32,000 nucleotides of DNA, from NCBI GenBank assembly GCA_000025185.1, contig CP001848.1, forward strand, positions 1,050,001 to 1,082,000, in the 5' to 3' direction. Under the pieces are notes generated by a model. The model had not been told where the DNA came from. It searched no databases and was given only the letters and a program-made list of their open reading frames with translations. Shown in pieces: positions 1 through 25,131 of the stretch; position 1 is the first letter of the stretch, and every line of letters starts with the position of its first letter. Source of the stretch: Pirellula staleyi DSM 6068. GTDB lineage: Bacteria; Planctomycetota; Planctomycetia; Pirellulales; Pirellulaceae. The position numbers and the translations under genes are program-made.

Positions 1-315
1 TTGGTGATCGCCCGTTGTGGGTGTGAAGCCAGCCCACTAGCAATCAAGCAACTGTTAGTACCCAAAATCACTAGCACCAAGAGATCCGCAGCCAGTCAGG
101 TCAGCTAGCGCTTGCGCCCAAACATGCCTGCCTATCTGCTGACAAATTTCTATCAACTTTCTGACGAATTTCTTACAATCTACGGACGTTTTTGTCACTC
201 ATTTGGCAACAATCGCTGCCAAGTTCCTGACAATCTCTGCAAGAGTTCTTCACAAGCTGGGCATCGATCGAAAGTGGCCGAGGCGACTCGCGACCCGTAA
301 ATTCCGGTGTCGAAG

Positions 316-2553
316 TTACAACTCGAAGTGGAAGGTCTTCGCTAAAAAGCGGTAGAGACGTTTCCCGAGTGGTTGCCATCCTGTGTAAATTCTAGCCTGT
401 CCTTGCTGACCAACTTGAACATTTCCGAGTGAATTTCCGAGCGGAGCTGTCGCCTGGTACGACGTATGTAACGGTCGTGCCATTCCTAGCGCGTCGGTAT
501 AGGTATCGAGGCGTCCGCCCCCCTTGCTCGACGAACCGGCCGAAGCGACTTTCAGCTCGGTCGCGGCGATCTTTTCCACCTGGCTATCGAACGCTTCATA
601 GGTGTGCGATTCGAGCAGCACACTCACCTGCTGATCCTTCCGGACGAGGTCGATGTACGACTGATCGATCACCATCACCGCTTCGAGGTTGCTGGTGTCC
701 CCAATCACGCAGAGCAGATCGGTGGGGGTGAAGAGTGCGCCGACATTCCGCTCCGAGAGTGGGGTGCCGGTCCAAGTCTTCAGCCGACCTTCTTCACGAC
801 CTGCTTTGGCAGGTCGACTCGGGGCGGGAATCACAACCCCAGCCACCGGCGCGGTGATGGTCAGCCGCTTCGATTCCTCGAGCCGCTCGTTATATTGCCG
901 CTCGGCGGCTTGCAGCACTTGCTCGGCGGCTTCGATTTGGTCGACCGCCGTGCTATCGGTAAAGCGGAGTCGATAGAGCCCTTCGAGGGCGTTTTTGGCT
1001 TCATCGCGCTGCCCCTTGAGGCGGAGCAATTCGATTTCCATCTCGGGGTTATCAAGCCGCGCGAGAACGGTTCCCGCTTCCACTTTATCGCCCGGTTTCA
1101 CGAGCACTTCGAGCAGTGTGCCGGGGGTGCTCGCAAAGATCTGCACGAGCTCGCGAGGCTGCACTTCGCAGGCCGCTTTCACCGAGTACGGGAGCGGAAT
1201 GAACAGGAGCAGTCCCACCGCGCCAGCGACCGACGCAAGGGTGATGGCGACTCGTGTACGTTTCACTTTATTCATCCTCCCAGGGGCCCGGAAAAATTTC
1301 CACAGCTCCATGATGGGCTGAGCGACGAGCCCCACAAAACCCGACAGCGCGATGAGTTGTCCCACCGGCTTCAGACCAATCGGCTCGAAGACTTTGTTCA
1401 GAAAAAACAGAATCGAGAAGACCACCACCCAGCGATAGGCAACCGCCGCCACGGTGAACAGTGCAAAGGCCCAGCGATTCCCTTGCGGCAAGAAGGGGTT
1501 CTCGGGCTGCTCGATGCCGAGACACCAGTACAGCAGAAATCGCCGCGTAATCTCCGTCGCTTTTTGACGCAGGTTCGGGATTTCGAGCAAGTCCATCAGG
1601 ATGTAGTAGCCGTCGAAACGTAGCAGCGGATTGCCGTTGAACACGATCGTGCTGACCGAGCAGATGAACATCACGCTGAGCGCAATATGGTTGATCATCC
1701 CCGGTTCGCTGAACCACCAGACAAACGTGGCGACCGATGCTAAGAACAGCTCGACATACATCCCCGCTGCGCCGATGAACGCGCGGTGATATTTGTTGGG
1801 CAACATCCAGCTGTCGGAAACGTTGCAGTAGAGCGCCGGAGTGAAGACCAGCAGCATCGCGCCAAGTTCGTGGCATTCGCCGCCGTAGTGCTTGCACGAG
1901 AGTCCGTGCCCAAATTCGTGGAGCACCTTCACGCTCGCCATCGTGATCCCGAGCCAGATCCAGTTGCGTGGACCAAAGAACTCGTGAAACGCTGGCAGAC
2001 GTTGCGTAAAGACGTCGACGTTGACCATCACCAGCGAAAGCGCGGCGACCGCCAGCATCAACACGCCAATGATCGCGGCCGGTGTGAAGAACCAGCCGGT
2101 GAAGGGATAGAGCCAGTTGAAAAAGCGTTCGGGATCGACACCCCGAAAGCGCATCGAGAAGACATTCGAGAGCTTGCCGAGCATCTCGCGCCACTTCTTC
2201 TCGTCGCGACGTTTGCGGAGCTGATGCCCTTGGCCTGGAGCTTCGCTAATCACCAGCCCACTGCGGTGCAGCATGCCGACGAACTGTAGTAGGTCCTGAA
2301 ACGTGATCTTCTGCGGCTGATACTGCTGCTCGAATTGCTCTTTGATTTCGTCGAGGCTGTGATGGCCGTCGAGCATGCACAGAATCGCATACTCTTCTTC
2401 GTGAAATCGGAAGTAACTGAGGCCGACCGGTTCTTTGAGCACCCAGAACGTGGTGCCGTGATAGCGATGCCGACGGGCCGACAGGTCGGGCCGCATGCGC
2501 AGCTGCAGCGGACGCGAGGTGCTGCTTACCAGACTATCGGCGAGAGTGACCAT
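316..2553 (-). CDS. PqqD/RRE-like domain + site-2 protease (peptidase M50) + HlyD-type membrane-fusion domain fusion protein
   Basis: 745-aa ORF with ATG at 2553. N-terminal ~70 aa (YFRFHEEEYAILCMLDGHHSLDEIKEQFEQQY...LLQFVGMLHRSGLV) looks like a PqqD-type peptide-binding winged helix. Polytopic core carries HEFGH (HExxH) and NPLLRFDG (NxxPxxxxDG), the two S2P catalytic motifs. After three more hydrophobic helices, the C-terminal half has a split lipoyl-type motif (PGTLLEVLVKPGDKVEAGTVLARLD ... ITAPVAGVV) around a coiled-coil hairpin, typical of HlyD/MFP proteins. GC-rich third codon positions. Confidence 0.85.
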   Translation of the reverse strand: MVTLADSLVSSTSRPLQLRMRPDLSARRHRYHGTTFWVLKEPVGLSYFRFHEEEYAILCMLDGHHSLDEIKEQFEQQYQPQKITFQDLLQFVGMLHRSGLVISEAPGQGHQLRKRRDEKKWREMLGKLSNVFSMRFRGVDPERFFNWLYPFTGWFFTPAAIIGVLMLAVAALSLVMVNVDVFTQRLPAFHEFFGPRNWIWLGITMASVKVLHEFGHGLSCKHYGGECHELGAMLLVFTPALYCNVSDSWMLPNKYHRAFIGAAGMYVELFLASVATFVWWFSEPGMINHIALSVMFICSVSTIVFNGNPLLRFDGYYILMDLLEIPNLRQKATEITRRFLLYWCLGIEQPENPFLPQGNRWAFALFTVAAVAYRWVVVFSILFFLNKVFEPIGLKPVGQLIALSGFVGLVAQPIMELWKFFRAPGRMNKVKRTRVAITLASVAGAVGLLLFIPLPYSVKAACEVQPRELVQIFASTPGTLLEVLVKPGDKVEAGTVLARLDNPEMEIELLRLKGQRDEAKNALEGLYRLRFTDSTAVDQIEAAEQVLQAAERQYNERLEESKRLTITAPVAGVVIPAPSRPAKAGREEGRLKTWTGTPLSERNVGALFTPTDLLCVIGDTSNLEAVMVIDQSYIDLVRKDQQVSVLLESHTYEAFDSQVEKIAATELKVASAGSSSKGGGRLDTYTDALGMARPLHTSYQATAPLGNSLGNVQVGQQGQARIYTGWQPLGKRLYRFLAKTFHFEL

Positions 2554-2635
2554 AGAGACGTCGAGCGAGCGTTAGATGAGTCAAACAGAAGCGAACAGAC
2601 GAATCCGAAGCGACGGTGTAATTTGATGGGGGCAG

Positions 2636-4222
2636 TTATTTGATGGGGGCAGCGGGCGGCGGAGTAGTCGGTGCCGCTGGAGCTGTTGGTGCGGGAACAG
2701 CGTCGCGCTTCACACCTGGAATCTGGCCCGTAGCTGCAGGGGCAAATGCGCCGCTACCAATTCCTGGCGCACCGGCGGGGCTTTCAACCACCGGCTTGAG
2801 CGTGGTGGTCTCGGTGGTGGAAGGTGTGGCCGCGATTGGCTTGCCCGCTGGCTCACTCGGAGGGGTCGCCTGAGCCGAGGTTCCAGGGGCGGCCGGTTTC
2901 GCAGGAGCTGGGGCTGGCTTGCCGGGAGCCGTGACAGGCTTCCAGTTCGATGGAGCAGCTGGCGCACCACCAGCAGCATTGCCAGGAGCTGCGCTACTGG
3001 GGACTGCGCTGCTCGGAGCCGCCGAATTTGGCTTGGCTTCGGTCGTGGGGACTCCGTAGGTGCCGACGTATGTCTTATCGATACGCAGGTCGGCGCTCGC
3101 ACCGGGCTGAATCACATAGTGACCTTCGAGCAGACGATTCTCGACTTCAGCCCAGACACGGAACTGGCGGCTGCGTCCGGTCCCTTCGACAATCGGGCTC
3201 ACAAAGTCGATCACGCCGCGCACCACTTCCGTCTTACCGCGCGACAGATGTACGGTTACTTCCACGGGCTTACCAGCCACCTCCGATGGAGTGGCCTCGT
3301 CGGCGAGAACAAAACCTTCCACACGGACGCGATCGAGGCGTACGAGTCGCAAGATCGGTTCGCCAGGCTGAACCCACTCACCCACCTTCTTGAAAACTTC
3401 CACCACCACACCCTTTTGCGGTGCGGCGATGCGGCGGCGCTGGATTTCGTTATCAGCCGCTTCGACCTGCGTGCTTTTCACCACGGTGGTGAGCTGCGCG
3501 ACAACGCGATCGACCTCGGCCACTTTGATTTGTGCTAGTGCTCGGTCGAACTGGAAGCGCGAACGACGCATGTCGAGATCGCTCACCGCGTCGGGATTCT
3601 TGGCCCGAATCTGGATGTTCTGATCCATTTCGATCTTCGAAACTTCGGCCGCTTTTTGAGCCGCTTCGAGTTCAGCGGTACTCTCGGCTTGTGTCGTGGC
3701 GACGCTCAATTCCCCTTCGGCGATTTTTCGTTTAGCCAGGGCATCGCGATTGTCGAGTTCTCCCAGGATATCTCCCTCGAGCACCGACTCGCCCCCCTTC
3801 ACCACGAGCGACATCAGCGTGCCAGGCTCGCGAGCAGGAACACGAATGTCGTCAAACGCAGTCACCAGACCGTGCGGAACCACCACCACGCCGGGACCGG
3901 TGAAGTTCGGCTGTTTGGCCGGAATTTTGTTTGCCGTGCGCGGGGCGCTTGCTGCAGGTGCGCTCAGCGAAGGGGCCGTGGCTGCAGGGCTGGGTGGAAG
4001 CAGATTGGTCGGAGGAGTGCTCGCTGGCTTCGCAGCAGGCGTTTGCGGCGCAGCGCTCGGAACTGCAGTGCTTGGCACAGCAGCGCTCGGAGCAGTCGCC
4101 GCTGGTGCTACGGCAGCCGCAGGCGATTGGCCTTGCAGGTGAAGCGTTGTCATCAGCCCCAGTCCGATGCCGGCGATCGACAAGAGCGAGTTTCGCAGCG
4201 TGAGGTGTTGTGGTTTTTTCAA
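2636..4222 (-). CDS. HlyD-family periplasmic adaptor (membrane fusion protein) with Pro/Ala-rich N- and C-terminal extensions
   Basis: 528-aa ORF. TTG start at 4222 with GGAG 8 nt upstream. N-terminal anchor helix (LLSIAGIGLGLMTTL). ~90 aa P/A/S/T-rich spacer. MFP core (GTLMSLVVKGGESVLEGDILGELD ... long coiled coil ... IAAPQKGVVVEVF ... beta-barrel region). ~140 aa P/A/T-rich C-terminal tail. Lies 82 nt upstream of the M50-HlyD gene. Confidence 0.85.
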   Translation of the reverse strand: MKKPQHLTLRNSLLSIAGIGLGLMTTLHLQGQSPAAAVAPAATAPSAAVPSTAVPSAAPQTPAAKPASTPPTNLLPPSPAATAPSLSAPAASAPRTANKIPAKQPNFTGPGVVVVPHGLVTAFDDIRVPAREPGTLMSLVVKGGESVLEGDILGELDNRDALAKRKIAEGELSVATTQAESTAELEAAQKAAEVSKIEMDQNIQIRAKNPDAVSDLDMRRSRFQFDRALAQIKVAEVDRVVAQLTTVVKSTQVEAADNEIQRRRIAAPQKGVVVEVFKKVGEWVQPGEPILRLVRLDRVRVEGFVLADEATPSEVAGKPVEVTVHLSRGKTEVVRGVIDFVSPIVEGTGRSRQFRVWAEVENRLLEGHYVIQPGASADLRIDKTYVGTYGVPTTEAKPNSAAPSSAVPSSAAPGNAAGGAPAAPSNWKPVTAPGKPAPAPAKPAAPGTSAQATPPSEPAGKPIAATPSTTETTTLKPVVESPAGAPGIGSGAFAPAATGQIPGVKRDAVPAPTAPAAPTTPPPAAPIK

Positions 4223-4306
4223 GGGAACTACTCCGGCCCAAGGGCCCGAATGTGCGTGGTGATGTGGAGGGTGCTGATGTCGGCGCTGGGAGCCACGGCG
4301 AGCGAA

Positions 4307-6361
4307 CTAGAAGAACAGATTCGCTTCGGCCCATTCCCAAGCTTCGTGCAGCTTGGCCCAGCCGAGCGACGCCTTGCCGCAGTTCACATTAGCCGTGACC
4401 GTCGCGCCCGGATAAGGGGTGTTGAGTTCGGTATCGGTACTCACTTTGATGCGCACAATTTGGCCATGCTCTTCGTGCGTTTCAGCCACCGGATCGATCT
4501 GCGTCACCTTGCCGTAGTGATAGGTCCCGGGATCGGTCATCAGGATGTAGTCGACCGCCAGTTCCTGCGAAGGATCGTCTTTTTTGATCTGGTTGCGATA
4601 GCGAACGATGTGATCGATCCGCTTCTCGGGCATGTAGAGCTCGAGCTCGTAGTCGGTCCCTTCTTCGGCAATCGTCATCAGCAGCTGACCAACTTCAACA
4701 GGGCGATTCTGCAGAGATTTTTTCGTATCCCAGGTGATCACGCGGCCCCGTTTGGGGCTTACGACGGTGAGCTGTTTTTTGCGATCGAGCAGCAACTGCA
4801 AGCGCTCGTCGAGGCTTTCCACTTGCACTTGGACGCGCGACATCTGCGCTTGATCGCGGGCGCGTTCTTGTTCGGTAACCTGACGACCGGTGTTGGTCAC
4901 GCGGTCGCGCACGGCAGCGAGTTCTTCGCGCGCGGCGAGAAGCTGACCTTCGACCTCGGCAATCTGCAGCGGCAGCTCATCGCTCCGCATCTTCAGCAGC
5001 ACTTGCCCCTCTTCCACCAGCGTGCCGTTGTCGACCAGCACTTCGGTGACAACACCGCGCTGCGGCACAAAAATGTCGGCCTTCGAAATCGGCTGCAAAG
5101 TTCCCTTCGCACGCATGTCGAAATCGGTCTGAATGACCGCTAGTGCCAATAGCACCGCCAGCACAATGCCGGTGATGGTGAGTGTTTTGGGAAGCTGTCG
5201 CGCCTGCACCACCCAGCCTGCTTTGCCAAGCGTTTTCCAGACTGGCATCAGGAACAAACTGTTGTGATCGATGGCGTTGGTGAGGGCCCGCGACGAGTGT
5301 TCGTAGACCAGGTCGAGACGTGGCAGGAGGACTTCGCGCGGGATCTCGCTTTCGATCTGCTCGACGATGATTGCGCCGATCAGTTCCCCCTTCTTTTCCG
5401 ACTCACTGGGGGTGGTGGTTCCGGCGGCAGCATCGGCTGATTTCGGTTTGCGAATCGGAATCACCGCGAGCGATTTGGTGTACGACTGATCGACGTACTC
5501 CTCCACTGCGGTTTCGATTTGCGGCGGCATATCCTCAGTCGAACCGTAATACCACAGCGGCTCGCCAGTGGCGACGACGCGCGTGGCAAGTTTGCCCAGC
5601 AGCGTGACGACGTTCGAGCGGTTGTCGAGTGTGTCTTGACCACTCACCGCTTCGATGGTGCAGCTGCTTCCATGTTTGAGGGCGATGCTGACACGGTCGC
5701 AGCCGAGCAAGCGTCGACCTTCGTTGACGATGGTGTAGCAGGTTTCGCGAACGTCGAGACTTTCGTGCGCGGCGCGTGAAAAACTATCGGCCTGCGCCCA
5801 GAGGGAGTGTCGATCGGAGAACTGCTTGAGGCGGCGATTCTTGAACCACTCCGACGCCATCTCGCACATCTGCCGCAGGAACTGCAAATAGCCGCGCTGC
5901 GTGGCTGGTGGCGAATTGGGGCGCTGGAAAATTTCGATTAGCGCTTCCACCTGGTCGTCGTGTCCCAGGGGATGAATCACCAGCAGTTGACGGGTCGGAT
6001 TGCCACCCATCCGCTCGTCGCCCGCGCCGGAGAGCGGGGGGACCAGCTGCGGCTGATTGCTGGCGATGATGTAGTCGAGCAAGCGATAGTGCTTTTGCGC
6101 ATCGTCGCAGCCACTATCGAGCAAGTTCGGCGTGAGATTGATTTGATACGACAGCTCGGGCTTCTTCGCTTCACCAAGCACCCAAATCGCGCCACCCACA
6201 GCGGCGAGCGCTTGCACCACGCGCTGCAAGAATGCGGCGTGGAACTCTTCGGGGGTCATGTCGCTCTTGCAGATCTGCGCAACCTCGCCCACCAAGCCAC
6301 GAATCTGCTGCTTGGTTTTTTCGATGGTCTCGCTGCTGACCTGAGATTGTCCCGTTGCCAT
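4307..6361 (-). CDS. Tandem GAF-like sensor domains + TM helix + HlyD-type adaptor domain
   Basis: ORF is open to a TTG at 6469 (720 aa). The first ATG is at 6361 (MATGQSQVSS..., 684 aa) and is preferred. Two GAF-like blocks (AAVGGAIWVLGE...LLVIHPLGHDDQVEALIEIFQ and RRLLGCDRVSIALKHGSSCTIEAVSGQD...GELIGAIIVEQIES). One TM helix (LTITGIVLAVLLALAVI). Then an MFP core (RGVVTEVLVDNGTLVEEGQVLLKMRSD ... coiled coil ... VVSPKRGRVITWD ... beta-barrel). Lies 84 nt upstream of the next adaptor gene. Confidence 0.8.
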   Translation of the reverse strand: MATGQSQVSSETIEKTKQQIRGLVGEVAQICKSDMTPEEFHAAFLQRVVQALAAVGGAIWVLGEAKKPELSYQINLTPNLLDSGCDDAQKHYRLLDYIIASNQPQLVPPLSGAGDERMGGNPTRQLLVIHPLGHDDQVEALIEIFQRPNSPPATQRGYLQFLRQMCEMASEWFKNRRLKQFSDRHSLWAQADSFSRAAHESLDVRETCYTIVNEGRRLLGCDRVSIALKHGSSCTIEAVSGQDTLDNRSNVVTLLGKLATRVVATGEPLWYYGSTEDMPPQIETAVEEYVDQSYTKSLAVIPIRKPKSADAAAGTTTPSESEKKGELIGAIIVEQIESEIPREVLLPRLDLVYEHSSRALTNAIDHNSLFLMPVWKTLGKAGWVVQARQLPKTLTITGIVLAVLLALAVIQTDFDMRAKGTLQPISKADIFVPQRGVVTEVLVDNGTLVEEGQVLLKMRSDELPLQIAEVEGQLLAAREELAAVRDRVTNTGRQVTEQERARDQAQMSRVQVQVESLDERLQLLLDRKKQLTVVSPKRGRVITWDTKKSLQNRPVEVGQLLMTIAEEGTDYELELYMPEKRIDHIVRYRNQIKKDDPSQELAVDYILMTDPGTYHYGKVTQIDPVAETHEEHGQIVRIKVSTDTELNTPYPGATVTANVNCGKASLGWAKLHEAWEWAEANLFF

Positions 6362-7010
6362 AGTCGCTCGGCTCAGTCTGACGTTAGGGGGCTCACTAAG
6401 TAGTTTGGCAACACGCGCGTGGCCGGGGGGCTTTCGCGCTTGGCAATTTTTGCAAGCCACAAGCGGCAAACCAGCTGCAGCTTCTGGCTACGTAAAAATT
6501 GCAAACCAAACTCCAATCTTTCAGCAAATCGGTGCCGCGCTACTGGCGTAGCCAGCACGGTTTGCTTGCTTCTCGGCGCTATCCTTCACACGATTTCTCG
6601 TGCACTGTCATTCAGTTGTGCACTATCACTTGCCACTGTCATTCGCACGCTGTCACTCACCACAGACACGCTGCTGCGGGCCTGCCAGAACGTCGGTGAA
6701 GCGGCAAAGCTCCACGCAGAAAGTTCTAGGTTCACTCTAAATGCTGATGCTCTCGCTGCTGTACGTTTTGTTTCATTTCCCGAGCATTTCCGCTGGTTTT
6801 GACCTCCAGCCGTAATGCCTGTAACGTTTATCCGTTTGGCGTGCGACGATTTGTCTAACCTTCTGTCACGCCCATTTGATTTTCTTAACACGACCCGTTT
6901 TGGCAGACTTTTCGGCAAAGCCCTTTCACCCAACGCAAACCTCGTGCCCAGGAAGCTGACTCGCTCTAAAAACAACCATTTGCAAACGCCACTCGGTAGG
7001 CCACTCGGCA

Positions 7011-9044
7011 TCAATCGGGCGTATCGAGGTAGGGATCTTGCCCCATCTCGAGCTGCATCTTCTTCCGCTCTTTCTCATGGTGCAGCAGCGCAAAGCGATC
7101 GCGCAAATGCTTCCGCTCGACCCGCTGCTGAGCCCGAAAGATCATTCCCACTTGTCGTTGGGCGGCAGGACCTGCGGTCTTGCCCCACTGCTCCATCCGC
7201 TCGGCCACTTCGGGGCCATAGCCGCTTTTGATCACATCGTCGTCGAGCGACATATACTGCCGCGTCGTGCCGGGATCCCCTTGGCGACCACAGCGTCCGA
7301 CGAGCTGACGATCGATCCGCGCGCTATCGTGCAGCTCGGTGCAAATCACATGCAGGCCACCCAGTTCGCGCATGCCAGGAGCCAGTTTGATGTCGGTACC
7401 ACGACCGGCCATGTTCGTGGCGACAGTCACTTTGAATTGTTCGCCCGCGAGCGCCACGATCTCTGCTTCGCGCTCCACCTCGTTGGCATTGAGCACGCGG
7501 TGGGTGATGCCAGCGGCGGTGAGGAGCCGCGAGAGATGCATCGATTTATCGATGCTCTTGGTGCCGATCAGCACCGGGCGACCCACCTGGTTCATCGCCT
7601 TCACATCTTCCACCACAGCGGCCCATTTTTCGTCCTCGGTGCCGAAGACCAAATCGGGCAAGCGCTTGCGCTGCGACGGGCGATTCGTCGGAATCGGCAC
7701 CACGCGCATCTTGTAGACTTTGCGAAATTCGTTGGTGGCCGACATCGCCGTACCGGTCATCCCCGCGATGTGCTTATAGCGCAGAAACAGATCTTGCACC
7801 GTGATGCGGGCCGCTTGTCCCGTGGCGACTGAAACTTCGATCTTCTCTTTCGCTTCAATCGCTTGATGAATGCCATCGCGCCATTTGCGACCTTCGGCCA
7901 AACGGCCGGTGTTTTCGTCGACAATTGTGATCTCGCCGTCGATCACCACGTAGTGCCGGTTGAGCAAATAATCGCGCGCTACTTTTATGGCCCGCTCGAT
8001 GTACTGATACAGATCGACGAGCCCCATCGTGCTCAGCAGTTCGGGCTTTGGCAGCGCGCGCAGCAGCTGGCGACCAGCTGCAGTGAGCTCGACTTTTTTA
8101 TCTTCGTCGTCGTAGTCGTAGTGCTTCTCTTCGAGGAACTGCGATTGCACTTCAGCCGCCCAGCGATAGGTGGCAACAATCCGGTCGATCGCTTTATCGC
8201 CAAGCGCGCCGATGATCAGCGGCGTGCGTGCTTCGTCGATCAAAATGCTGTCGGCTTCGTCGACCAGGCAGAAGTGCGCTTCGCGCTGCACCGGCTGTTC
8301 GCTGTTGGCGTCGGCTCCGACACCGGTGAATTGCCCCAGCAAACTCCCTTGCGCGGCGCCGAGCCTGCGGAGCAGCAAGCGATCGCGCAAGAAGTCGAAG
8401 CCAAATTCTTTGGCGGTGCCGTAGGTGATGTCGCAGCCGTACGCCTTGCGGCGGGCGTCGGATTTATCTTTGGTCAGCACCACGCCGGTGGTGAGTCCCA
8501 GCATGGCATAGACCGGGCGCATCATGTTGGCATCGCGCTCGGCCAGGTAGTCGTTCACGGTCGCCAGATGCGACCCTTTCCCCACCAGCGCGTGGAGATA
8601 CATCGGCAGCGTGGCGGTGAGCGTTTTACCTTCACCCGTTTCCATTTCGGCAATCGAGCCGTGAAACAGGGCAATGCCGCCAATCATTTGCACGTCGTAG
8701 TGACGCTGGCCAATCACGCGGCGCGATGCTTCGCGCACCAGCGCATAGGCCTCGGGCAACAGCGTGGCGAGTTTCTCGCCACTTTTGGCGCGATACTTCA
8801 GCGAGAGGCTCCGCTTACGCAGCTCGCGATCATCCTCGGCAACGAGGGTCTCTTCAAACGCCGCGATTTGCGGAAGCACCTGCCCCCAACGGGCGAGACG
8901 ACTTTGCACGGGACCACCGAGCAAGGAGAGCACCTGGGCTCGCCAGCCTGTAGGAAGACCGTGAATCGTGGGAGGGTTGGTCATGATGTTTCGCAGTGGT
9001 GGCAAAGTGCCGATGTCGGAAACCGGCAGAGAAGCGTACGTCAT
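7011..9044 (-). CDS. secA: SecA-family preprotein translocase ATPase, short paralog lacking the usual C-terminal domains
   Basis: Unmistakable SecA motifs: AEMETGEGKTLTATLP (Walker A), LVDEADSILIDEARTPLII (Walker B/DEAD), TNMAGRGTDIKL, GGLHVICTELHDSARIDRQLVGRCGRQGDPG. The ORF is open to 9323, but the first 93 codons translate a polypurine tract (RGESRGGKKCEGRGG) and look non-coding. Candidate ATG starts are 9044 (MTYASL, 677 aa) or 8984 (MTNPPT, 657 aa). Confidence 0.85.
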   Translation of the reverse strand: MTYASLPVSDIGTLPPLRNIMTNPPTIHGLPTGWRAQVLSLLGGPVQSRLARWGQVLPQIAAFEETLVAEDDRELRKRSLSLKYRAKSGEKLATLLPEAYALVREASRRVIGQRHYDVQMIGGIALFHGSIAEMETGEGKTLTATLPMYLHALVGKGSHLATVNDYLAERDANMMRPVYAMLGLTTGVVLTKDKSDARRKAYGCDITYGTAKEFGFDFLRDRLLLRRLGAAQGSLLGQFTGVGADANSEQPVQREAHFCLVDEADSILIDEARTPLIIGALGDKAIDRIVATYRWAAEVQSQFLEEKHYDYDDEDKKVELTAAGRQLLRALPKPELLSTMGLVDLYQYIERAIKVARDYLLNRHYVVIDGEITIVDENTGRLAEGRKWRDGIHQAIEAKEKIEVSVATGQAARITVQDLFLRYKHIAGMTGTAMSATNEFRKVYKMRVVPIPTNRPSQRKRLPDLVFGTEDEKWAAVVEDVKAMNQVGRPVLIGTKSIDKSMHLSRLLTAAGITHRVLNANEVEREAEIVALAGEQFKVTVATNMAGRGTDIKLAPGMRELGGLHVICTELHDSARIDRQLVGRCGRQGDPGTTRQYMSLDDDVIKSGYGPEVAERMEQWGKTAGPAAQRQVGMIFRAQQRVERKHLRDRFALLHHEKERKKMQLEMGQDPYLDTPD

Positions 9045-9084
9045 TAATCTTAGAAAATTCGGGGAACTGCGTCGTGAGTTTTGT

Positions 9085-9098
9085 CCGGGAATTCCCGG
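9085..9098. promoter_or_regulatory. 14-bp perfect palindrome CCGGGAATTCCCGG upstream of the secA paralog
   Basis: Read directly from the sequence. Lies 41 nt upstream of the 9044 ATG on the minus strand. It could be an operator or a 5' UTR hairpin; the function is unknown. Confidence 0.25.
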
Positions 9099-9229
9099 CA
9101 AATCCGCACAATCGTCACCCTGAAAAGTGCAGCCAGCAGCAAGAGTTTCCGGCGGTTCCGAGCCCACCGGCGCTCCCCTGCGGCGGTTATACGAACCGCA
9201 AGTCGGTCTGGTTGTCGTCCTGGGAAAAG

Positions 9230-9310
9230 CCCCGCCTCGCCCCTCGCATTTCTTCCCTCCTCTGCTTTCCCCTCGCCTCTCGTCTCCTGCCTCCCACCCC
9301 TTCGCCCTGC
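9230..9310. repeat. Polypyrimidine (plus strand) / polypurine (minus strand) tract with reiterated CCTCGC
   Basis: Hand count gives 11 purines in 81 nt (~86% pyrimidine on the plus strand). CCTCGC occurs at 9235, 9242 and 9271. Lies in the divergent spacer between the secA paralog and the BBP7 gene. Confidence 0.6.
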
Positions 9311-9602
9311 TAGCCCGCTGCACTGCATCGCTAGCAAAACTTTCCCACTACAAACGCTACAGCCGGAATATTTTCTCAATCGATTGCTACCCGACCGCCG
9401 AAGATTACCCCACAGCGAACCCTGGGCAAGATTTGCCGATTGCAAGGACTGTTCAGGGGTAAGACGGCTCGGAACGGCTTTGCACAGGACGGGCAAAGTG
9501 CGTCGAGTTTGACGGTCGTCCGTGACCTTGCTGGATTTTCCGGTTCTGCCGGTCGATCCCAATCATGCAACTGGCGACACTTTTTTGAGCGAGCTGATTC
9601 CC

Positions 9603-11009
9603 ATGAAGTCGACCTCGATGTTCTCCGCCGCGATGGCCTGGCTGGCTCTCACTGCCTCGGCTGCGGTCGCACAGACGATGGAACAGCCTGCTTCGTACGT
9701 GGAGCCTGCCTCCTACGGCGAATCTGGCAGTGGGGCCATGACCGCTGCCTACGAAGAGCCCACCCAGCGCACCGGACCAATGGTGCAACTCGCCTCGTGG
9801 TGGAACAACACCGCCGGTGGTGCCAGTGCCAACTGCACCGACACTGCACCCTCGTGTGGCGATGTGCTCGGCTACGGTCCAGCCTCGGAATATTGCGGCG
9901 AGATGTGTAACCCACGTTGCCGCTCGCTCGATCTGTGGGGGAACGTCGAGTTCCTGATGTGGTGGGGCAAAGGGACCGACCTGCCGCCACTGGTTGGCAC
10001 CAGCACCGATTCTGCGACACCACGCGGCGATGCTGCGGTCCTGGGCCGCCCTAACTACGAAAACCTCTTCGGCGGCGATACCTACGGCAACGAACTGCAA
10101 GTCGGTGGACGCTTTACCGCCGGTCTCTGGCTCGATCCGCATCACACCTTGGGCTGGGGCACCCGCTTCATGGCTTTGGGTGGCGACGATGCCAACTTTG
10201 CGGCTGCCAGCACGGGGGACCAAGGATCTCAAATTCTCGGTCGGCCGTTCTTCAACGCCCTGCTCGCCACCGAAGACTCGCTGCTGATCGCCTACTTCGA
10301 TGAACTGCAAGGCGATCCGATTGCCGGTGGCAGTGTGAACGCCAGCTTCAGCAACAGCTTCCTGTCGGCAGAAACGTTCTTCCGCGTGATGATGGAAAAC
10401 GATGGCCGCCGTCGGGTCGACCTCTTGGCCGGTTATCAAATGCTCCGCCTCGACGACGCCTTCCAAGTCAACAGCTTCCACACCAGCCGCGATCCACTCT
10501 CGCTGATTCCTGTCGGCACCACATTCGACATCACCGACCGCATCCGTGCGAAGAATGAATTTCACGGTGGTATGTTCGGCTTGCAGAGCTCGCTGCAGAA
10601 CGGACAGTGGTCGATCGACAGCATCGCCAAGATGAGCGTCGGCAATATGAACCAGAAGATCGAAATGTTCGGTCAAACGCTGGTCGACGGTGTCGCAGCT
10701 CCCGGTGGTGGTTTGCTCGTACAACCGACCAACGCCACACCTCCGACTCGCGAACGCGACAAGTGGGCTTTCATCCCTGAAATCAGCCTCGCCCTGGCTT
10801 ATCACCCCACGCAAAACCTGAGCTTCTCGGTCGGCTACAACATCATCTGGATGTCGGATGTGGTGACCTCGGGAGACCAGGTCGACCGGAACGTGAACAT
10901 CACGCAAGTGAATGGCCCACTGATTGGCCCAGCGGTTCCTGCTCCACGCTTTGTCGACAGCGACTACTGGCTGCAAGGGATCAACTTCTCGATGAACTAC
11001 GACTTCTAA
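9603..11009 (+). CDS. BBP7-family (DUF1551-like) outer-membrane beta-barrel protein
   Basis: The ORF opens at a GTG at 9522. The ATG at 9603 gives a clean signal peptide (MKSTSMFSAAMAWLALTASAAVAQ). WGNVEFLMWWGKG motif, alternating beta-strand pattern, and a C-terminal aromatic residue (NFSMNYDF), typical of planctomycetal BBP7 barrels. Strong GC3 in this frame. Confidence 0.75.
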   Translation: MKSTSMFSAAMAWLALTASAAVAQTMEQPASYVEPASYGESGSGAMTAAYEEPTQRTGPMVQLASWWNNTAGGASANCTDTAPSCGDVLGYGPASEYCGEMCNPRCRSLDLWGNVEFLMWWGKGTDLPPLVGTSTDSATPRGDAAVLGRPNYENLFGGDTYGNELQVGGRFTAGLWLDPHHTLGWGTRFMALGGDDANFAAASTGDQGSQILGRPFFNALLATEDSLLIAYFDELQGDPIAGGSVNASFSNSFLSAETFFRVMMENDGRRRVDLLAGYQMLRLDDAFQVNSFHTSRDPLSLIPVGTTFDITDRIRAKNEFHGGMFGLQSSLQNGQWSIDSIAKMSVGNMNQKIEMFGQTLVDGVAAPGGGLLVQPTNATPPTRERDKWAFIPEISLALAYHPTQNLSFSVGYNIIWMSDVVTSGDQVDRNVNITQVNGPLIGPAVPAPRFVDSDYWLQGINFSMNYDF

Positions 11010-11057
11010 ACGAAGTTGGTTAAGCGAAGTCCACCCGACAGCTTAGTGAAACAACTG

Positions 11058-11099: not shown

Positions 11100-11109
11100 G
11101 CGGCACGTG

Positions 11110-12569: not shown

Positions 12570-13853
12570 ATGCTAAAGATTCGTCTTGGTCAGTCGTCGG
12601 ATGCGTACTGCGACGGCGTTTCGCGGCGTAGTTTTCTGCGGCTCGGGGCCCTTTCGCTCGGGGCGGTAGCTGCCAATTTCTCGCTCGCCGATCTGCTCCG
12701 CGCGGAAGAGGCGGCCGGAATTGGGTCTTCTAATAAAGCGATCATTAATATTCATTTAGGTGGTGGACCTTCGCACCAAGATATTTTTGATCTTAAACCC
12801 GAAGCGGCGGTGGAATTCCGAGGCGAATTCAGCCCGATTTCGACCAACGTCGAGGGGATTCAGATCTGCGAGCATTTGCCCAAACTAGCGCAAATGGCTG
12901 ATAAATTCGCCATTATTCGCTCGCTCGTCGGCAGCACTGGCCAGCATAGCAACTACCAAACGCACTCGGGCTACGACATGCGCGACCTGCGTAATGCTGG
13001 TGGTCGGCCGTCGCTGGGAAGTGTGATCTCCAAAGTTGCGGGACCAAGCGCGTCGGGTGCTCCGGCCTTTATTTCTTATAATGGTGGCGACCCTGGATAT
13101 TTAGGCCCTGTCTATAAGGCTTATGCCCCTCAAGGTGGCAGCTTAAAGCTCACCAAAGATCTGACGGTCGAGCGGCTCGACGACCGGACGAACCTGCTCG
13201 CTTCGCTCGACCGAATTCGCCGCGATGTCGACTCGAGTGGTCAGATGGAAGCGCTCGACTCGTTCACGCAGCGGGCTGTCGGCGTGGTTACCAGCGGCAA
13301 AGTGGCCGAAGCGCTCGACGCTTCGAAAGTGACCCCCGACGAAAAAGAACGCTACGGCAAAGAGGGAATGCCGTTCCTCACCGCCCGTCGGCTGGTGGAG
13401 TCTGGTGTGCGGGTTGTCACCTTCAGCTGGGGTGGCTGGGACACGCACAGCAACAACTTTACGAGCCTGAAGCGGCAATTGCCCAACATGGACCGGGCCC
13501 TTTCGGCCCTGCTCACCGACCTGCACGACCGGGGGCTCGAAAAAGATGTGACCGTGGTGGTGTGGGGCGAGTTTGGCCGGACCCCTCGCGTGAACGGCGG
13601 AGCGGGACGCGATCACTGGCCGCAAGTGATGGGCGCTTTCCTCGCCGGTGGTGGCATGAAGACCGGACAGGTGATCGGCAGCACGACCAAGAACGCCGAA
13701 GCGGCCAAGGATCGCCCGGTTCACTTCCACGAAGTCTTCTCGACCCTCTATTACAACCTGGGGATCGACGTCGGTAGCAAAACGCTGGAAGACACCGCTG
13801 GCCGGCCGCAATACCTGGTCGATAAGCGCGAAGTGATTCGCGAACTGGTGTAA
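12570..13853 (+). CDS. DUF1501 domain protein (sulfatase-like fold) with Tat signal
   Basis: 427 aa. GAGGAG lies 9 nt upstream of the ATG. Twin-arginine motif SRRSFLRLGALSLGA. GGPSHQDIFDLKP, WDTHSNNF and GRDHW blocks are characteristic of the planctomycetal DUF1501 family. Confidence 0.9.
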   Translation: MLKIRLGQSSDAYCDGVSRRSFLRLGALSLGAVAANFSLADLLRAEEAAGIGSSNKAIINIHLGGGPSHQDIFDLKPEAAVEFRGEFSPISTNVEGIQICEHLPKLAQMADKFAIIRSLVGSTGQHSNYQTHSGYDMRDLRNAGGRPSLGSVISKVAGPSASGAPAFISYNGGDPGYLGPVYKAYAPQGGSLKLTKDLTVERLDDRTNLLASLDRIRRDVDSSGQMEALDSFTQRAVGVVTSGKVAEALDASKVTPDEKERYGKEGMPFLTARRLVESGVRVVTFSWGGWDTHSNNFTSLKRQLPNMDRALSALLTDLHDRGLEKDVTVVVWGEFGRTPRVNGGAGRDHWPQVMGAFLAGGGMKTGQVIGSTTKNAEAAKDRPVHFHEVFSTLYYNLGIDVGSKTLEDTAGRPQYLVDKREVIRELV

Positions 13854-15322: not shown

Positions 15323-17338
15323 ATGGCTAAGCAACGCGTGATGATCATCGGCGGCGGACTTGCAGGTCTTGCGGCGGCGATGAAATTGGCCGAAATCGGC
15401 ATCGATGTCGACCTGATGAGCCTGGTGCCTGTGAAGCGTTCGCACAGCGTGTGCGCTCAAGGTGGCATCAACAGCTGCAACGACCAAACGCGTCAGCTCG
15501 GCGATAGCGAGTGGCTGCACCTGGACGACACCGTGTATGGTGGCGACTTCCTGCAGCATCAGCCTCCCGTAAAAGAAATGGCCTACTGGGGCCCCAAGAT
15601 CATCGACCTGATGGACCGTCTGGGGGTACCGTTCAACCGGACTCCGGAAGGCTTTATCGATCGCCGCCGCTTTGGTGGTACGCTCTACAAGCGGACCGCG
15701 TTTGCGGGCGCGACGACTGGTCAGCAGCTCCTCTACTCGCTCGACGAGCAAGTCCGCCGCTGGGAGTCGCAAGGAAAGATCCGTAAGTTCGAATTTTGGG
15801 ACTTCCTCGGCCCGGTCCTCGACGATGCGGGTGTTTGCAAAGGTGCCATCGGCCAAGACCTGGTGACGATGGAAATTCGCTCGTTCCCAGCCGACGCGGT
15901 GATCGTCGCTTCGGGTGGTCCCGGGTTGATCTATGGCCGCAGCACGATGAGCATGGTTTGCACCGGGTCGGCTGCCAGCCGCTGCATGCAAGCGGGTGCG
16001 AAGTTCGGCAACGCCGAGTTCATCCAGGTACATCCCACCGCCATTCCAGGTGCTGATAAGCTCCGCCTGATGAGCGAATCGGCCCGTGGTGAAGGTGGCC
16101 GCGTGTGGGTTCCTCGGAAGCCACAAGATCCTCGCGATCCGCTCGTCATTCCTGAAGCCGAGCGCTATTACTTCCTGGAAGAGCGCTATCCGAAGTACAA
16201 AAACCTCGTGCCGCGTGATATCGCGACCCGCGAGATTTTCGATATCTGCGTGAACGAGAACCTGAGCGTTGAAAAAGAACGTCTGGCCGTCTATCTCGAC
16301 CTGACGCACATTCCGCGTAAGGAACTCGATCGCAAATTAGGCGGCATTCTCGAGATCTACGAGAAGTTCCAAGGGGTCGATCCGCGCAGCACCCCGATGA
16401 AGATTTTCCCTGCGGTGCACTACTCGATGGGTGGCCTGTGGGTCGACTATCAGAAGAGTGCCGACGGTGGTCTCGTGGTCGGATCGCCCAAGAATCAAAC
16501 CACCAACATTCCTGGTCTCTATGCGATCGGCGAATGCGACTATCAGTACCACGGCGCGAATCGCCTCGGCGCGAACTCGCTGCTGTCGTGCATCTTCAGC
16601 GGCCTCATCACCGCTCCTGGTATCGAAACGCTGCTGAAGGGTCAAAAGACCGCTGCGGCCGATCTGCCAAGCTCGCTGTTTGAATCGGCTCGCAAGCAGC
16701 ATCAGGCTCGTCACGATGCCCTGCTGAAGCGTTCGGGAACCGGCGGCGAGAATCCGTACCTCATTCACCAGGAACTGGGGGATGTGATGACGAAGGCCGC
16801 CACGGTGGTGCGTCGCAACGATCAGCTGAAGGCTGCGATCGGAACGGTGAGCGACCTGTACGAACGGGCTCGCCGCAGCTCGCTGGCCGACACCGGCAGC
16901 TGGACCAACCAGAACGTGGTGTTCACCAAGGCGCTGATCGACATGTTCCCGCTGGCCCTGGCGATTTTGCGTGGTGCTTTGCAGCGTGACGAAAGCCGCG
17001 GCGCTCACTACAAACCCGACTTCTCGATGGGCTCGCTCACGTCGAACGAACCGGGCGAACGTCGTCGTCAGGCCGAAGTTTGGTGCGACAAGTTCGAAGA
17101 GAACAACGCCAAGTGGCTCAAGAGCAGCATCGCCACGATCAAGGACTACGACGTCGAAGTGACCTACGAAGATGTCGACACGACGGTCGTTCCTCCCCGC
17201 CCACGGCTCTATGGTCTGGTCGGTGCCGACGAGATCGAGAAGGTGTGGAAAGAGCGAGCTGCTGCCAAAGAAGCAGCCGCAGCAGCCAACGGCAACGGTG
17301 CCCACGGCGCGAAGTCGGCCCTAGCTGGCGCTCACTAA
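15323..17338 (+). CDS. sdhA: Succinate dehydrogenase/fumarate reductase flavoprotein subunit
   Basis: 671 aa. FAD-binding IIGGGLAGLAAA. SHSVCAQGGIN (covalent FAD His region). HPT, RGEGG and HYSMGG motifs. C-terminal Ala/Lys/Glu-rich tail. Confidence 0.95.
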   Translation: MAKQRVMIIGGGLAGLAAAMKLAEIGIDVDLMSLVPVKRSHSVCAQGGINSCNDQTRQLGDSEWLHLDDTVYGGDFLQHQPPVKEMAYWGPKIIDLMDRLGVPFNRTPEGFIDRRRFGGTLYKRTAFAGATTGQQLLYSLDEQVRRWESQGKIRKFEFWDFLGPVLDDAGVCKGAIGQDLVTMEIRSFPADAVIVASGGPGLIYGRSTMSMVCTGSAASRCMQAGAKFGNAEFIQVHPTAIPGADKLRLMSESARGEGGRVWVPRKPQDPRDPLVIPEAERYYFLEERYPKYKNLVPRDIATREIFDICVNENLSVEKERLAVYLDLTHIPRKELDRKLGGILEIYEKFQGVDPRSTPMKIFPAVHYSMGGLWVDYQKSADGGLVVGSPKNQTTNIPGLYAIGECDYQYHGANRLGANSLLSCIFSGLITAPGIETLLKGQKTAAADLPSSLFESARKQHQARHDALLKRSGTGGENPYLIHQELGDVMTKAATVVRRNDQLKAAIGTVSDLYERARRSSLADTGSWTNQNVVFTKALIDMFPLALAILRGALQRDESRGAHYKPDFSMGSLTSNEPGERRRQAEVWCDKFEENNAKWLKSSIATIKDYDVEVTYEDVDTTVVPPRPRLYGLVGADEIEKVWKERAAAKEAAAAANGNGAHGAKSALAGAH

Positions 17339-18446: not shown

Positions 18447-18673
18447 GTGGAGCGAGACGCCAGTCAACTCCCACTCGCTTCCCCCAAGCCGACGGCTCTG
18501 TCGTCGTGGCGAGCGGTTACTCCTCCTCGGCCAACTTCCGAAGACGACGCACGAACCGCGCGAAAGTTTTGCGGCCGAAATGTTCCATCCCCTCGGACTG
18601 ATTGCTACAGTAGTTCGTGTGGCCGGTAGTTCGGCCGATTCGGCGCACTATCCTCGACGGCAGACGAGTGGCG

Positions 18674-20158
18674 ATGCGAGTTCTCCTTCTTCTCGTGGTG
18701 ACGTTTTTCGGCGTCTCGATCGTCAGTGCTTTTGCTGGCCTGTGCATCTTCATTGCTCTGAATAAAGAGGGGCCTCCCCCAGCACGCGAGCAGGCGAGCA
18801 CTCAGTCGACCAACCTCGAGATCGCAGAGTGGCAGCGCGAGATGCGCCGCACGCAGCAAAAAAACAATGCCGCGATTCGAGCCGCGCGGCGCTGGAGCGA
18901 TAGCAAACTCGCCCGGCATGTGCGCGACTATGTGCTCGCAGGGACAAGCTGGGACGACGACGAAGAGATCTATCCCGTGCAAGTGTTGCTGGCCCTTGGT
19001 CCTCGGGTCCACGAGCCGGTGCTCGCACTGGTGAACGATCGCTCGCTCTATCCGCAGCTGGTGCGCGAGCGGCGTTACGAGTCGTGGAGCGATTTTCCCT
19101 TCGAGCGCGCCTGCCAATTGCTCGGAGAGACCCCCCCACCCTCGGCCGTGGAAGGTTTGATTCCCTTTCAAAACGATCCCGAGCCGAAGATTCGCAACAT
19201 CGCCGCCAACACGATGGCCAAAATCGGAACGGGTTCGATCGTCCCCTACCTGCGGATAGCGCTGGTCGATTCCGATGAGCAAGTGGCGAGAAGTGCCGTG
19301 AATGGACTGCGTGTGGCGCTCGAGCGAAAGAATCTCGCACCGCACGTGCAAAAAATGATCGTTCCCGATCTCAAGCAGCTGCTGCGGCAGGGGAAGTGGC
19401 TCGGCAATGTCGCGTCGCTCCTGACGCTGCTCGATCCGGCCGACTCGCCCCAGTTCTTTCTCTCGAGCGAAGTACTGCGAGCCGATTCGCCCGCGATTGG
19501 CGAAGTGCTGATCGAAATTTTGGGGCAGAAAATCACCGTTCCGCCCGACCAACTCCAAGCGCTCATCGCCGGGCTCGAGACGAAGACCATGGAGTATCCG
19601 ACCGACTATGCGCTCGGCAATGCGCTCCGCTTAGTCGGTCGTCAGCAGCTGCCCGAGGCGGAGTCTTTTTTGCGGCAGCGGATCTCGCATGAAAACGTCG
19701 GCGTCGCTTATGGGGCGGCTGATGGGCTCCTCAATCTGGCCGGGCTCGAGGATTTTGAAAGCAAAATTTGGGTCTACGAGGATGACGCTTCAGAGCCGGT
19801 CCTCAATCAGCAGCAGAAGCTCTACCAGTTGGTCTGGGACACCGATAGTGCGATCAGCGACAGTGGAATTTTTTGGTATTTCCAGAGTTCCTCGGGGGAC
19901 CGGTGGCGCGAGGCTTTGGCAAGTTTCGAAACGCTGGGGCTCAAGGAGCATCATGCGATTTTGAGCGAGGCAGTGGCTCTCTTTGGCAGCGACGGCCCCG
20001 CCGCTGATCTCGAGACGCGCACACGGCAGATGAAAGCCCGCTTTTCGGAAGAGGGAACCGAGTTCGAAGCGCTCGACGCCCGCTATTTCGAAACCGAAGA
20101 GAGCCTCAAAATCCACACGACCAACTACGTCCTCGAAAACGTTGACGCGTTTCGCTAA
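18674..20158 (+). CDS. Membrane-anchored HEAT-repeat protein with DMP19/DUF4375-like C-terminal domain
   Basis: The ORF opens at a GTG at 18617. The ATG at 18674 starts directly with a hydrophobic anchor (MRVLLLLVVTFFGVSIVSAFAGLCIFIAL). HEAT-like repeats (DPEPKIRNIAANTMAKIG...LVDSDEQVARSAVNGL). The C-terminus (SGIFWYFQSSSGDRWREALASFETLGLKEHHAILSEAVALFG) resembles the DUF4375 core. Family assignment is by eye only. Confidence 0.6.
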   Translation: MRVLLLLVVTFFGVSIVSAFAGLCIFIALNKEGPPPAREQASTQSTNLEIAEWQREMRRTQQKNNAAIRAARRWSDSKLARHVRDYVLAGTSWDDDEEIYPVQVLLALGPRVHEPVLALVNDRSLYPQLVRERRYESWSDFPFERACQLLGETPPPSAVEGLIPFQNDPEPKIRNIAANTMAKIGTGSIVPYLRIALVDSDEQVARSAVNGLRVALERKNLAPHVQKMIVPDLKQLLRQGKWLGNVASLLTLLDPADSPQFFLSSEVLRADSPAIGEVLIEILGQKITVPPDQLQALIAGLETKTMEYPTDYALGNALRLVGRQQLPEAESFLRQRISHENVGVAYGAADGLLNLAGLEDFESKIWVYEDDASEPVLNQQQKLYQLVWDTDSAISDSGIFWYFQSSSGDRWREALASFETLGLKEHHAILSEAVALFGSDGPAADLETRTRQMKARFSEEGTEFEALDARYFETEESLKIHTTNYVLENVDAFR

Positions 20159-24951: not shown

Positions 24952-25131
24952 TGCCAGATCTCCAGTTCCAAGCCAGCGTCGCGGGGGTGGCTTTATTCTC
25001 GCCCGCAACCCACTGCCATGACAAGATTTAAGTAGTTGGCATTATTCTTAGGAAGCTGACCAGTCCTGGCCCCACAGACGTCCGTAAACCCCTATAGGAC
25101 TTCGCCAAGCATTTCTTCTTTACCGGATGAC

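Follow-up and report, generated by a model that had tools for sequence, protein, structure and literature searches.

A site-2 protease fused to a peptide-recognition domain and a periplasmic adaptor in Pirellula staleyi: a candidate leader peptidase for the export of LExRxLL proteins

Introduction

What might an intramembrane protease act on when it carries a peptide-recognition domain at its cytoplasmic end and a periplasmic adaptor at the other? The question is raised by a gene near the edge of a 32,000-nucleotide stretch of Pirellula staleyi DSM 6068 (contig CP001848.1, positions 1,050,001 to 1,082,000; hereafter the window). The open reading frame (ORF) starts with an ATG, occupies 316..2553 of the minus strand in the list of ORFs and encodes 745 aa. 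It joins a RiPP (a peptide made on the ribosome and modified after translation) recognition element (RRE), a site-2 protease (S2P) core of the M50 family and a membrane fusion protein (MFP), that is, a periplasmic adaptor of the HlyD type.

On balance, the protein is probably the subunit that recognizes leaders, removes them and serves as an adaptor in an export apparatus spanning the envelope, one similar to a type 1 secretion system (T1SS) but without an ATP-binding cassette (ABC) transporter; the clients would be proteins with an LExRxLL motif. That it serves as signal receptor and leader peptidase of an ABC-independent pathway powered by a SecA paralogue and exporting LExRxLL (LEPR-XLL/Planc_extracel) proteins is plausible, if a little short of probable. 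Planctomycetes, several Proteobacteria and Chlorobi display very large proteins on their surface without a Sec, Tat or type-1 signal.

Three Domains in One Protein

The ORF and its domain motifs, judged as sequence features, are confirmed to lie far beyond chance. More than 6,400 homologues of the 745-aa protein are found at E ≤ 1e-5, the closest being Pirellulaceae proteins of matching length (745–752 aa, 58–70% identity) that databases name “putative peptide zinc metalloprotease (YydH)” or “HlyD family adaptor.” With residues 1–440 as the query, 3,591 representatives of 50%-identity clusters are retrieved at E ≤ 1e-30, nearly all of about 740 aa, and the architecture is therefore common to the family. 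It is not a new one, since the family has thousands of members, some of them already annotated as “PqqD family.” In three planctomycete loci (L035, L070, L077) the protease gene aligns in two pieces, with a break near residues 520–600, which could reflect frameshifts, pseudogenes or assembly errors.

The first-pass annotation of the window had proposed a PqqD-like N-terminus, quoting a string that corresponds to residues 33–102, and structure prediction bears this out. The AlphaFold2 (AF2) model of residues 1–110 (pLDDT 81) contains β-strands at 15–20, 25–31, 34–40 and 47–51, followed by helices at 52–61, 67–77 and 85–98, and the three-stranded β-sheet followed by three helices that characterizes RREs can be superimposed on solved examples. 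In a Foldseek search of the PDB, ranks 1–7 are all RREs (TbiB1 with its leader, TigE, PqqD, ThcOx, lasso B1), and the RRE-bearing enzymes MibB, MadB and TglHI appear farther down the list; over all of these, TM-scores are 0.5–0.74 and the probability is 1.00. Profile hidden Markov models (HMMs) give weaker matches. The window protein reaches E 0.021 and 15.6 bits with Pfam PqqD (PF05402), below the 23.4-bit gathering cutoff, and E 8e-4 and 19.3 bits with NCBIfam PqqD (TIGR03859), below the 46-bit cutoff. The Pfam model matches 8 of 24 diverse relatives (best E 4.8e-5), and two proteobacterial homologues exceed its gathering cutoff. As modeled, the N-terminus is an RRE/PqqD fold. It is also the best-conserved region of the protein (75–87% identity, against 59–70% over the full length in an identical set of homologues), which fits a single receptor for many clients bearing one common motif.

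The membrane core is predicted to be a zinc-dependent intramembrane protease. Its best NCBIfam match is the daptide intramembrane metalloprotease NF041824 (daptide_HExxH; E 9e-55, residues 29–412), although the score of 186.3 bits stays below the 300-bit equivalog cutoff, and a YydH/LiaK model also matches (E 4e-13). Pfam Peptidase_M50 (PF02163) is sub-threshold in the window protein (E 4e-4, 20.2 bits vs. a cutoff of 27.2); the same model is found in 24 of 24 relatives at E ≤ 0.1 (best 3e-9), and five proteobacterial homologues exceed its cutoff. The zinc-binding HEFGH sits within a predicted helix (195–222), and the second S2P motif, NxxPxxxxDG, is present as NPLLRFDG. H212, E213, H216, N306, N308, P309 and D314 are invariant in 24 relatives of 32–52% identity. 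Of 92 related M50 cores, all keep HExxH and 91 keep NxxPxxxxDG. Both motifs had been read as intact in the first-pass annotation, which also named their routine loss from orthologs as the mark of a pseudo-protease; the motifs are indeed intact and conserved across the family, and no such loss is seen. The family profile matches MjS2P (3b4r) at the HEFGH helix. Among the Foldseek matches of the full-length model, all of which are adaptors, the S2P fold is absent, and support for the S2P comes from sequence and profile. A PDZ domain is found in only 1 of the 24 relatives.

The C-terminal half is an MFP with a membrane anchor, a lipoyl domain, an α-hairpin and a β-barrel. Pfam HlyD_D23, Biotin_lipoyl_2 and HlyD_3 match within residues 462–665, a profile search against PDB sequences finds the adaptor as well, and Foldseek aligns the full-length AF2 model (pLDDT 74), α-hairpin included, with MacA, MexA, AcrA and EmrA at E ~4e-13. 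The same model has seven transmembrane (TM) helices and a β-hairpin at 231–242, and the loop ahead of the last TM helix is rich in lysine and arginine (7 K/R within residues 419–434). The topology predicted from the seven TM helices and the positively charged, cytoplasmic loop before the last is the arrangement anticipated by the first-pass annotation, with a cytoplasmic RRE and a periplasmic adaptor. It places both the RRE and the active site on the cytoplasmic face and residues 453–745 in the periplasm.

Conserved Partners in Planctomycetes

The gene is the last of a conserved locus described in 2015, a wider system that the first-pass annotation missed, as it did a DUF3467 gene just outside the window. 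Kamneva, Poudel and Ward reported a “secondary SecA_DEAD,” unrelated to the canonical SecA found in the same genome, which is encoded with GAF-HlyD, Peptidase_M50-HlyD and HlyD proteins and sometimes with OEP, in Planctomycetes, Verrucomicrobia, Proteobacteria, one Nitrospirae and one Chlorobi species (PMC4452313). In their proposal the module has a T1SS-like function in which SecA_DEAD is the ATPase and the M50 protein may form the pore; the biological role was called “completely unknown” (PMC4452313). The operon META1p2399-2402 of Methylobacterium extorquens AM1 is among those they list (PMC4452313). Their paper says nothing of an RRE/PqqD domain, of DUF3467 or SapC, of a substrate or of the export signal in planctomycetes, and a literature search, with most subscription journals outside it, found no follow-up.

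The window locus is a member of this group, with the four genes (truncated SecA_DEAD, GAF-HlyD, M50-HlyD and HlyD) on one strand within 316..9044 (Table 1). The domains of the third adaptor follow the order GAF-GAF-TM-MFP, and a proteobacterial orthologue likewise combines GAF with HlyD. The SecA paralogue, of about 677 aa, is without the wing/scaffold domain and the two-helix finger; it matches SecA models only up to about position 600 and falls below every SecA and SecA2 cutoff. It is a candidate for the motor of the export apparatus. The longest ORF for this gene, 770 aa from a GTG at 9323, is probably overextended, as the gene call in L082 begins with “MTYASLPV.” The middle adaptor has low-complexity stretches rich in Pro, Ala and Thr, one after the membrane anchor (about residues 35–110) and one C-terminally (about 400–528), and one public gene call divides its ORF in two (L082 8220-8702 and 8665-9918). 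An unusually long gap of 649 nt (6362..7010) separates the SecA paralogue from the GAF-MFP gene; an Rfam scan of window positions 1–12000, which include it, gave no credible match.

Eighty planctomycete loci from a genome collection were compared, together with that of Anatilimnocola. The order GAF-MFP, MFP, M50-MFP is held in most of these 81 loci, and a tblastn homologue of the 528-aa adaptor adjoins the M50 gene in about 58 of them. The truncated SecA is linked in close relatives and, in differing gene orders, in the distant loci L057, L071, L075, L079 and L080. The RRE-M50-MFP family is near-universal in the sampled Planctomycetota, and several genomes have two paralogues. Some of these are “solo” copies without the GAF-MFP and MFP genes (L045, L046, L078, L049, L052, L063, L077). 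In L045, L046 and L078 the solo copy adjoins a divergent family-2 glycosyltransferase-like gene, and the neighbors of the solo paralogues (L045, L046, L063, L078 and others) are glycosyltransferases and housekeeping genes, with no precursors among them.

An all-against-all comparison of 13,218 ORFs of at least 30 aa from 82 loci returned, besides the operon genes, the SecA paralogue and overlapping shadow frames, one further recurrent linked gene, which encodes a DUF3467 protein of about 110 aa. In about 25 planctomycete loci this gene is found downstream of the protease gene, and in 5 others it stands upstream of GAF-MFP. In the genome of the window itself it encodes 112 aa (L082 12650-12988, +) and lies about 96 nt past window position 1, on the minus strand of the window and downstream of the protease gene. 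For DUF3467, single-sequence and profile searches found no solved relative, NCBIfam gave no match and no paper was found.

The flanks of the operon in the planctomycete loci are housekeeping genes. Neither conserved small precursor-like ORFs (at least 30 aa) nor conserved tailoring enzymes, sigma factors or transporters were found in the roughly 80 loci. Daptide precursors (ELExMEAP leader, C-terminal Thr) and MpaB/C/D/M enzymes are likewise absent from them and from the window. The first-pass annotation had seen no precursor gene next to the operon, and none was found. Genes for ABC, resistance-nodulation-division (RND) or major facilitator superfamily (MFS) transporters are missing beside the operon, both in the window and in the planctomycete loci, and from the proteobacterial cassettes described below.

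Proteobacterial Cassettes and the LExRxLL Signal

Homologues about 30% identical to residues 1–440 were found by tblastn on plasmids and chromids of Proteobacteria, and eleven of these loci were inspected. They are annotated variously as “PqqD family protein,” “PqqD family peptide modification chaperone,” “site-2 protease family protein” or “HlyD family adaptor.” The order is a GAF-MFP or other MFP gene, then RRE-M50-MFP, then a short MFP. Six of the 11 loci hold a truncated SecA (640–675 aa) within the cassette, 41–46% identical to the window copy and mis-annotated as “DEAD/DEAH box helicase” or “prepilin peptidase”; DUF3467 is present in 6/11, TolC is adjacent in 4/11, and SapC occurs in one (Pseudosulfitobacter), with Ensifer as a possible second. 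The gene set is conserved in two phyla.

Directly upstream of the cassette stands a giant gene (3,700 to about 12,900 aa) whose product begins with a basic stretch followed by LEPR-XLL in nine cases out of nine. The N-terminus was read in eight of them: Pseudosulfitobacter (MEALEPRFLLSADP), Thalassospira (VEPIEPRILLSADP), Methylosinus (FDTLEPRVLLNADV), Mesorhizobium (FEALEPRLLLSADF; leader peptide AVHFEALEPRLLLSADF), R. johnstonii (FESLEPRLLLSADF), Ensifer (LETLEPRYLLSADI), Azospirillum (MALEPRFMFDAAG) and Eleftheria (WALEARLMFDAAAV); the Pontibrevibacter giant is counted by its annotation as an LEPR-XLL protein. Four of the nine leaders exceed the cutoff of NCBIfam NF012209 (LEPR-XLL).

By its sequence, the proteobacterial motif appears to match the planctomycete export signal “RRLxxExLExRxLLA” (PF07595). 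This signal has been described as a putative novel N-terminal export signal, with no machinery named, and is carried by 52 proteins of T. immobilis; these include 8 of its 10 longest, and many of the 52 are found in the envelope fraction (PMC8567305). The motif is traced there to an earlier study (Studholme, 2004, as cited in PMC8567305). In Chlorobium chlorochromatii, giant LEPRxLL symbiosis proteins of 36,806 and 20,647 aa are reported to lack known transport signals, their genes neighbor those for SapC and TolC, and a horizontally acquired secA is co-expressed with them (2026 preprint). No literature linking an RRE, a protease and the LExRxLL motif was found in a search that left most subscription journals outside. 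In the planctomycete loci, 1.28 Mb in all, about 11 large ORFs (600 to >2,000 aa) start with a basic stretch and “LExRxLL[A/T]” and are without a hydrophobic signal region (for example the leader RRRNRLTHVERLEDRRLLAGNLF in L009). One of them has a DUF4347 domain, as does the Azospirillum giant, and Pfam PF07595 (Planc_extracel) gives weak matches on both planctomycete and proteobacterial leaders. It is the adjacency of genes in Proteobacteria that suggests a link between this client signal and the P. staleyi protein.

The cassettes of Azospirillum, Magnetospirillum, Eleftheria and Cupriavidus form a more divergent proteobacterial subtype. The giants of Azospirillum and Eleftheria carry a variant leader, “ALE(P/A)R(F/L)MFDAA,” and in this subtype receptor and leader may be changing together.

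A Proposed Export Pathway

The apparatus would consist of the truncated SecA paralogue as ATPase, the GAF-MFP as sensor or gate, the plain MFP, the RRE-S2P-MFP and DUF3467, with TolC in Proteobacteria. Its clients would be large surface proteins that start with an N-terminal basic stretch and then “LE(P/x)RxLL(S/A),” and have no hydrophobic Sec signal. The cytoplasmic RRE would capture the leader as an added β-strand, in the manner of RiPP RREs, and the S2P, whose active site is placed on the cytoplasmic side of the membrane, would remove it. The SecA paralogue would then drive the unfolded chain, and the three adaptors would provide a periplasmic conduit to an outer-membrane channel. The analyses show how the domains fold, that the catalytic residues are conserved, the topology, a gene set kept in two phyla and its proximity to LEPR-XLL genes; binding, cleavage and translocation, the passage through the inner membrane and what the GAF domains, DUF3467 and SapC do are inferred from sequence and gene context.

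Several points weigh against this pathway. The RRE could bind DUF3467 or the SecA paralogue rather than a leader, and the preprotein cross-linking domain of SecA could be the real signal receptor. The usual targets of S2Ps are hydrophobic helices within the membrane, whereas “RxLLSA” is only a short segment. Nor is there an evident inner-membrane pore through which a protein of roughly a megadalton could pass. For M50 as for PqqD, the window protein stays under the Pfam gathering cutoff, and the RRE is of low confidence in the full-length AF2 model. An ORF search of the window found no LExRxLL-type ORF, and the proposed planctomycete clients are scattered around the genome; because of this dispersal, the client link in planctomycetes rests on co-occurrence within the phylum and on the proteobacterial analogy. 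Among the Proteobacteria, one locus has an ELWxxDGT repeat protein as its neighbor instead of an LEPR protein. Within the divergent subtype, the four cassettes (L085, L088, L090 and L086, in the order named above) are without an adjacent SecA paralogue, and a scan with the PqqD HMM gave no detectable match in the Azospirillum, Magnetospirillum and Eleftheria members.

Alternative Explanations

The strongest alternative, itself unlikely, retains the export apparatus as conceived by Kamneva et al. (2015) and makes the M50 protein mainly its inner-membrane pore or scaffold, with an RRE that binds DUF3467 or the SecA paralogue and no role in leader removal. With no ABC, RND or MFS component in any locus, passage through the inner membrane needs another part (PMC4452313). 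The position of DUF3467 co-varies with the operon, and the preprotein cross-linking domain retained by the SecA paralogue is a possible reader of the signal. What tells against a pore is that the catalytic residues are invariant across two phyla, HExxH in every core compared, which argues for retained proteolysis. In addition, substrate leaders are what RREs have been seen to bind in the cases characterized to date, the best structural matches here are leader complexes, and an S2P monomer with 7 TM helices is not an obvious protein-conducting channel.

Considerably less likely is a RiPP-type leader peptidase and exporter, in which the RRE would bind a small precursor, the S2P would remove its leader and the adaptor would pass the product on. 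The idea draws on the N-terminal RRE fold, on the daptide protease MpaP as the best family match, with further matches to YydH/LiaK, and on the database name “putative peptide zinc metalloprotease YydH.” The MpaP match, however, reaches only 186 bits where the daptide equivalog calls for 300. The roughly 80 loci offer no conserved small ORFs, tailoring enzymes or ABC exporters, and their flanks are housekeeping genes. A family that is near-universal in the sampled Planctomycetota, often in two copies, is also unlike a sporadic biosynthetic gene cluster, and the genes that keep company with it are a SecA paralogue and those for LEPR-XLL giants. A RiPP precursor is thus probably not the substrate. 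The first-pass annotation had argued that an RRE on such a protease implies a dedicated substrate, either a leader-bearing precursor or an anti-sigma-like membrane protein. The leader-bearing part of this idea is sound and agrees with the published case of MpaP; a small precursor of the RiPP type, or an anti-sigma protein, is unlikely, none having been found in the same loci.

The second of those substrates belongs to an alternative that has very little to recommend it, regulated intramembrane proteolysis of an anti-sigma-like regulator on a signal sensed by GAF, with the HlyD-like domains serving only as scaffolds. S2Ps such as RseP and SpoIVFB classically act in regulated proteolysis cascades, and the operon does encode a GAF sensor domain. 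Yet no conserved sigma, anti-sigma or site-1 protease gene lies nearby, PDZ and CBS domains are missing (the single PDZ among the 24 relatives apart), and the adaptor has a full α-hairpin of the TolC type, with TolC adjacent in Proteobacteria. An ordinary tripartite efflux adaptor with a degenerate protease half is the least credible reading of all and is already largely refuted by the conservation data, for despite the strong MFP matches and database names such as “HlyD family efflux transporter periplasmic adaptor subunit,” no pump gene is present in the loci and the protease motifs and the RRE are better conserved than the adaptor.

Relation to Known Systems

The ORF is a member of a reported and widespread module, and the RRE-S2P class to which it belongs is already known. 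The leader peptidase proposed here differs from the scheme of Kamneva et al. (2015) in the M50 protein, which was seen there as a pore. Among characterized proteins the closest relative is MpaP, an intramembrane (site-2) protease that depends on its RRE to remove the leaders of daptide RiPPs (NF041824; PMC10028931). The two share an N-terminal RRE on an M50/S2P core, with homology over residues 29–412, and would share the logic of recognition followed by cleavage. In contrast, MpaP is without an adaptor domain, daptide clusters encode several short precursors and MpaB/C/D/M enzymes that are absent here, and clients here are likely to be proteins with hundreds to thousands of residues.

The likeness to T1SS and tripartite pumps (HlyBD-TolC, LapBCE, MacAB-TolC) lies in the adaptors, with their lipoyl domain, α-hairpin and β-barrel, in the TolC gene adjacent in proteobacterial relatives and in the giant adhesin-like neighbors. 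T1SS substrates carry a C-terminal secretion signal, whereas the candidate clients here carry an N-terminal motif. The ABC transporter of the HlyB type that a canonical T1SS has is missing; the locus combines a SecA-derived ATPase with three adaptors, which differ in the cytoplasmic or membrane module that each is fused to.

The SecA2 systems of Gram-positives and mycobacteria similarly use a second, shortened SecA paralogue for a subset of exported proteins. The paralogue of the present locus, however, is without the whole wing/scaffold region, falls below all SecA2 model cutoffs and has genes for adaptors and an S2P beside it, in place of those for SecY2 or Asp proteins. PF07595 (Planc_extracel) and NF012209 (LEPR-XLL), finally, describe the proposed client signals, which are carried by other large surface proteins and not by this ORF.

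The Rest of the Window

Divergent from the SecA paralogue lies a gene for a β-barrel protein of the BBP7 family (PF07585), an arrangement kept in 9 close relatives. It was considered as the outer-membrane partner and set aside, being conserved only in close Pirellulaceae and absent beside the distant loci, and plain synteny may account for its position. Other genes of the window are ordinary planctomycete ones, and two large ORFs in it have no Pfam match (Table 1).

Table 1. Features of the window, with positions counted from its first nucleotide; residue numbers refer to the encoded protein.
Feature	Position	Strand	Basis
RRE-S2P(M50)-MFP fusion protein	316..2553	-	ORF call, domain matches, homologues, AF2 models
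Predicted cytoplasmic RRE/PqqD-like domain, residues 14–104	2242..2514	-	AF2 model, Foldseek, PqqD HMM matches
S2P (M50) membrane core, residues 141–422, six TM helices and β-hairpin 231–242	1288..2133	-	NCBIfam, Pfam, profile, AF2, hydropathy
HEFGH zinc-binding/catalytic motif, residues 212–216	1906..1920	-	Sequence, invariance among relatives
NPLLRFDG motif with third zinc ligand, residues 308–315	1609..1632	-	Sequence, invariance among relatives
Seventh TM helix, adaptor anchor, residues 432–451	1201..1260	-	Hydropathy, AF2
Periplasmic adaptor (MFP/HlyD): lipoyl, α-hairpin (helices 503–529 and 535–562), β-barrel	319..1197	-	Pfam, Foldseek, profile
Second adaptor: N-terminally anchored MFP, 528 aa, Pro/Ala-rich linkers, same operon	2636..4222	-	Pfam, NCBIfam
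Third adaptor: cytoplasmic GAF domains, one TM helix (residues 429–447 of the 720-aa ORF), MFP	4307..6361	-	Pfam; start from L082 gene call
Truncated SecA paralogue (“secondary SecA_DEAD”): nucleotide-binding domain (NBD) 1, preprotein cross-linking domain, NBD2	7011..9044	-	Pfam, SecA models
Large ORF without Pfam match	9453..10976	-	
BBP7 (PF07585) β-barrel gene	9522..11009	+	
DUF1501 protein gene	12570..13853	+	
Succinate dehydrogenase/fumarate reductase flavoprotein gene	15323..17338	+	
HEAT/DMP19 protein gene	18617..20158	+	
Large ORF without Pfam match	20184..22958	-	
Pectate-lyase-like protein gene	23095..25008	-	

Implications

Should the link between this protein and the LExRxLL signal be wrong, the gene would still add a member to a widespread module that has been described before. 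If the proposed pathway is right, it would export some of the largest bacterial proteins known (10,000–36,000 aa), among others, and would explain a planctomycete export signal that has been without known machinery since 2004. It would also describe a secretion system built of a SecA-derived ATPase, an intramembrane protease and three adaptors, and would widen the role of the RRE from small natural-product precursors to protein secretion. If it is the RRE that reads the LExRxLL motif, the pathway becomes directly testable. The interest of the locus thus lies in the specific link that is predicted between an RRE and a long-unexplained export signal.

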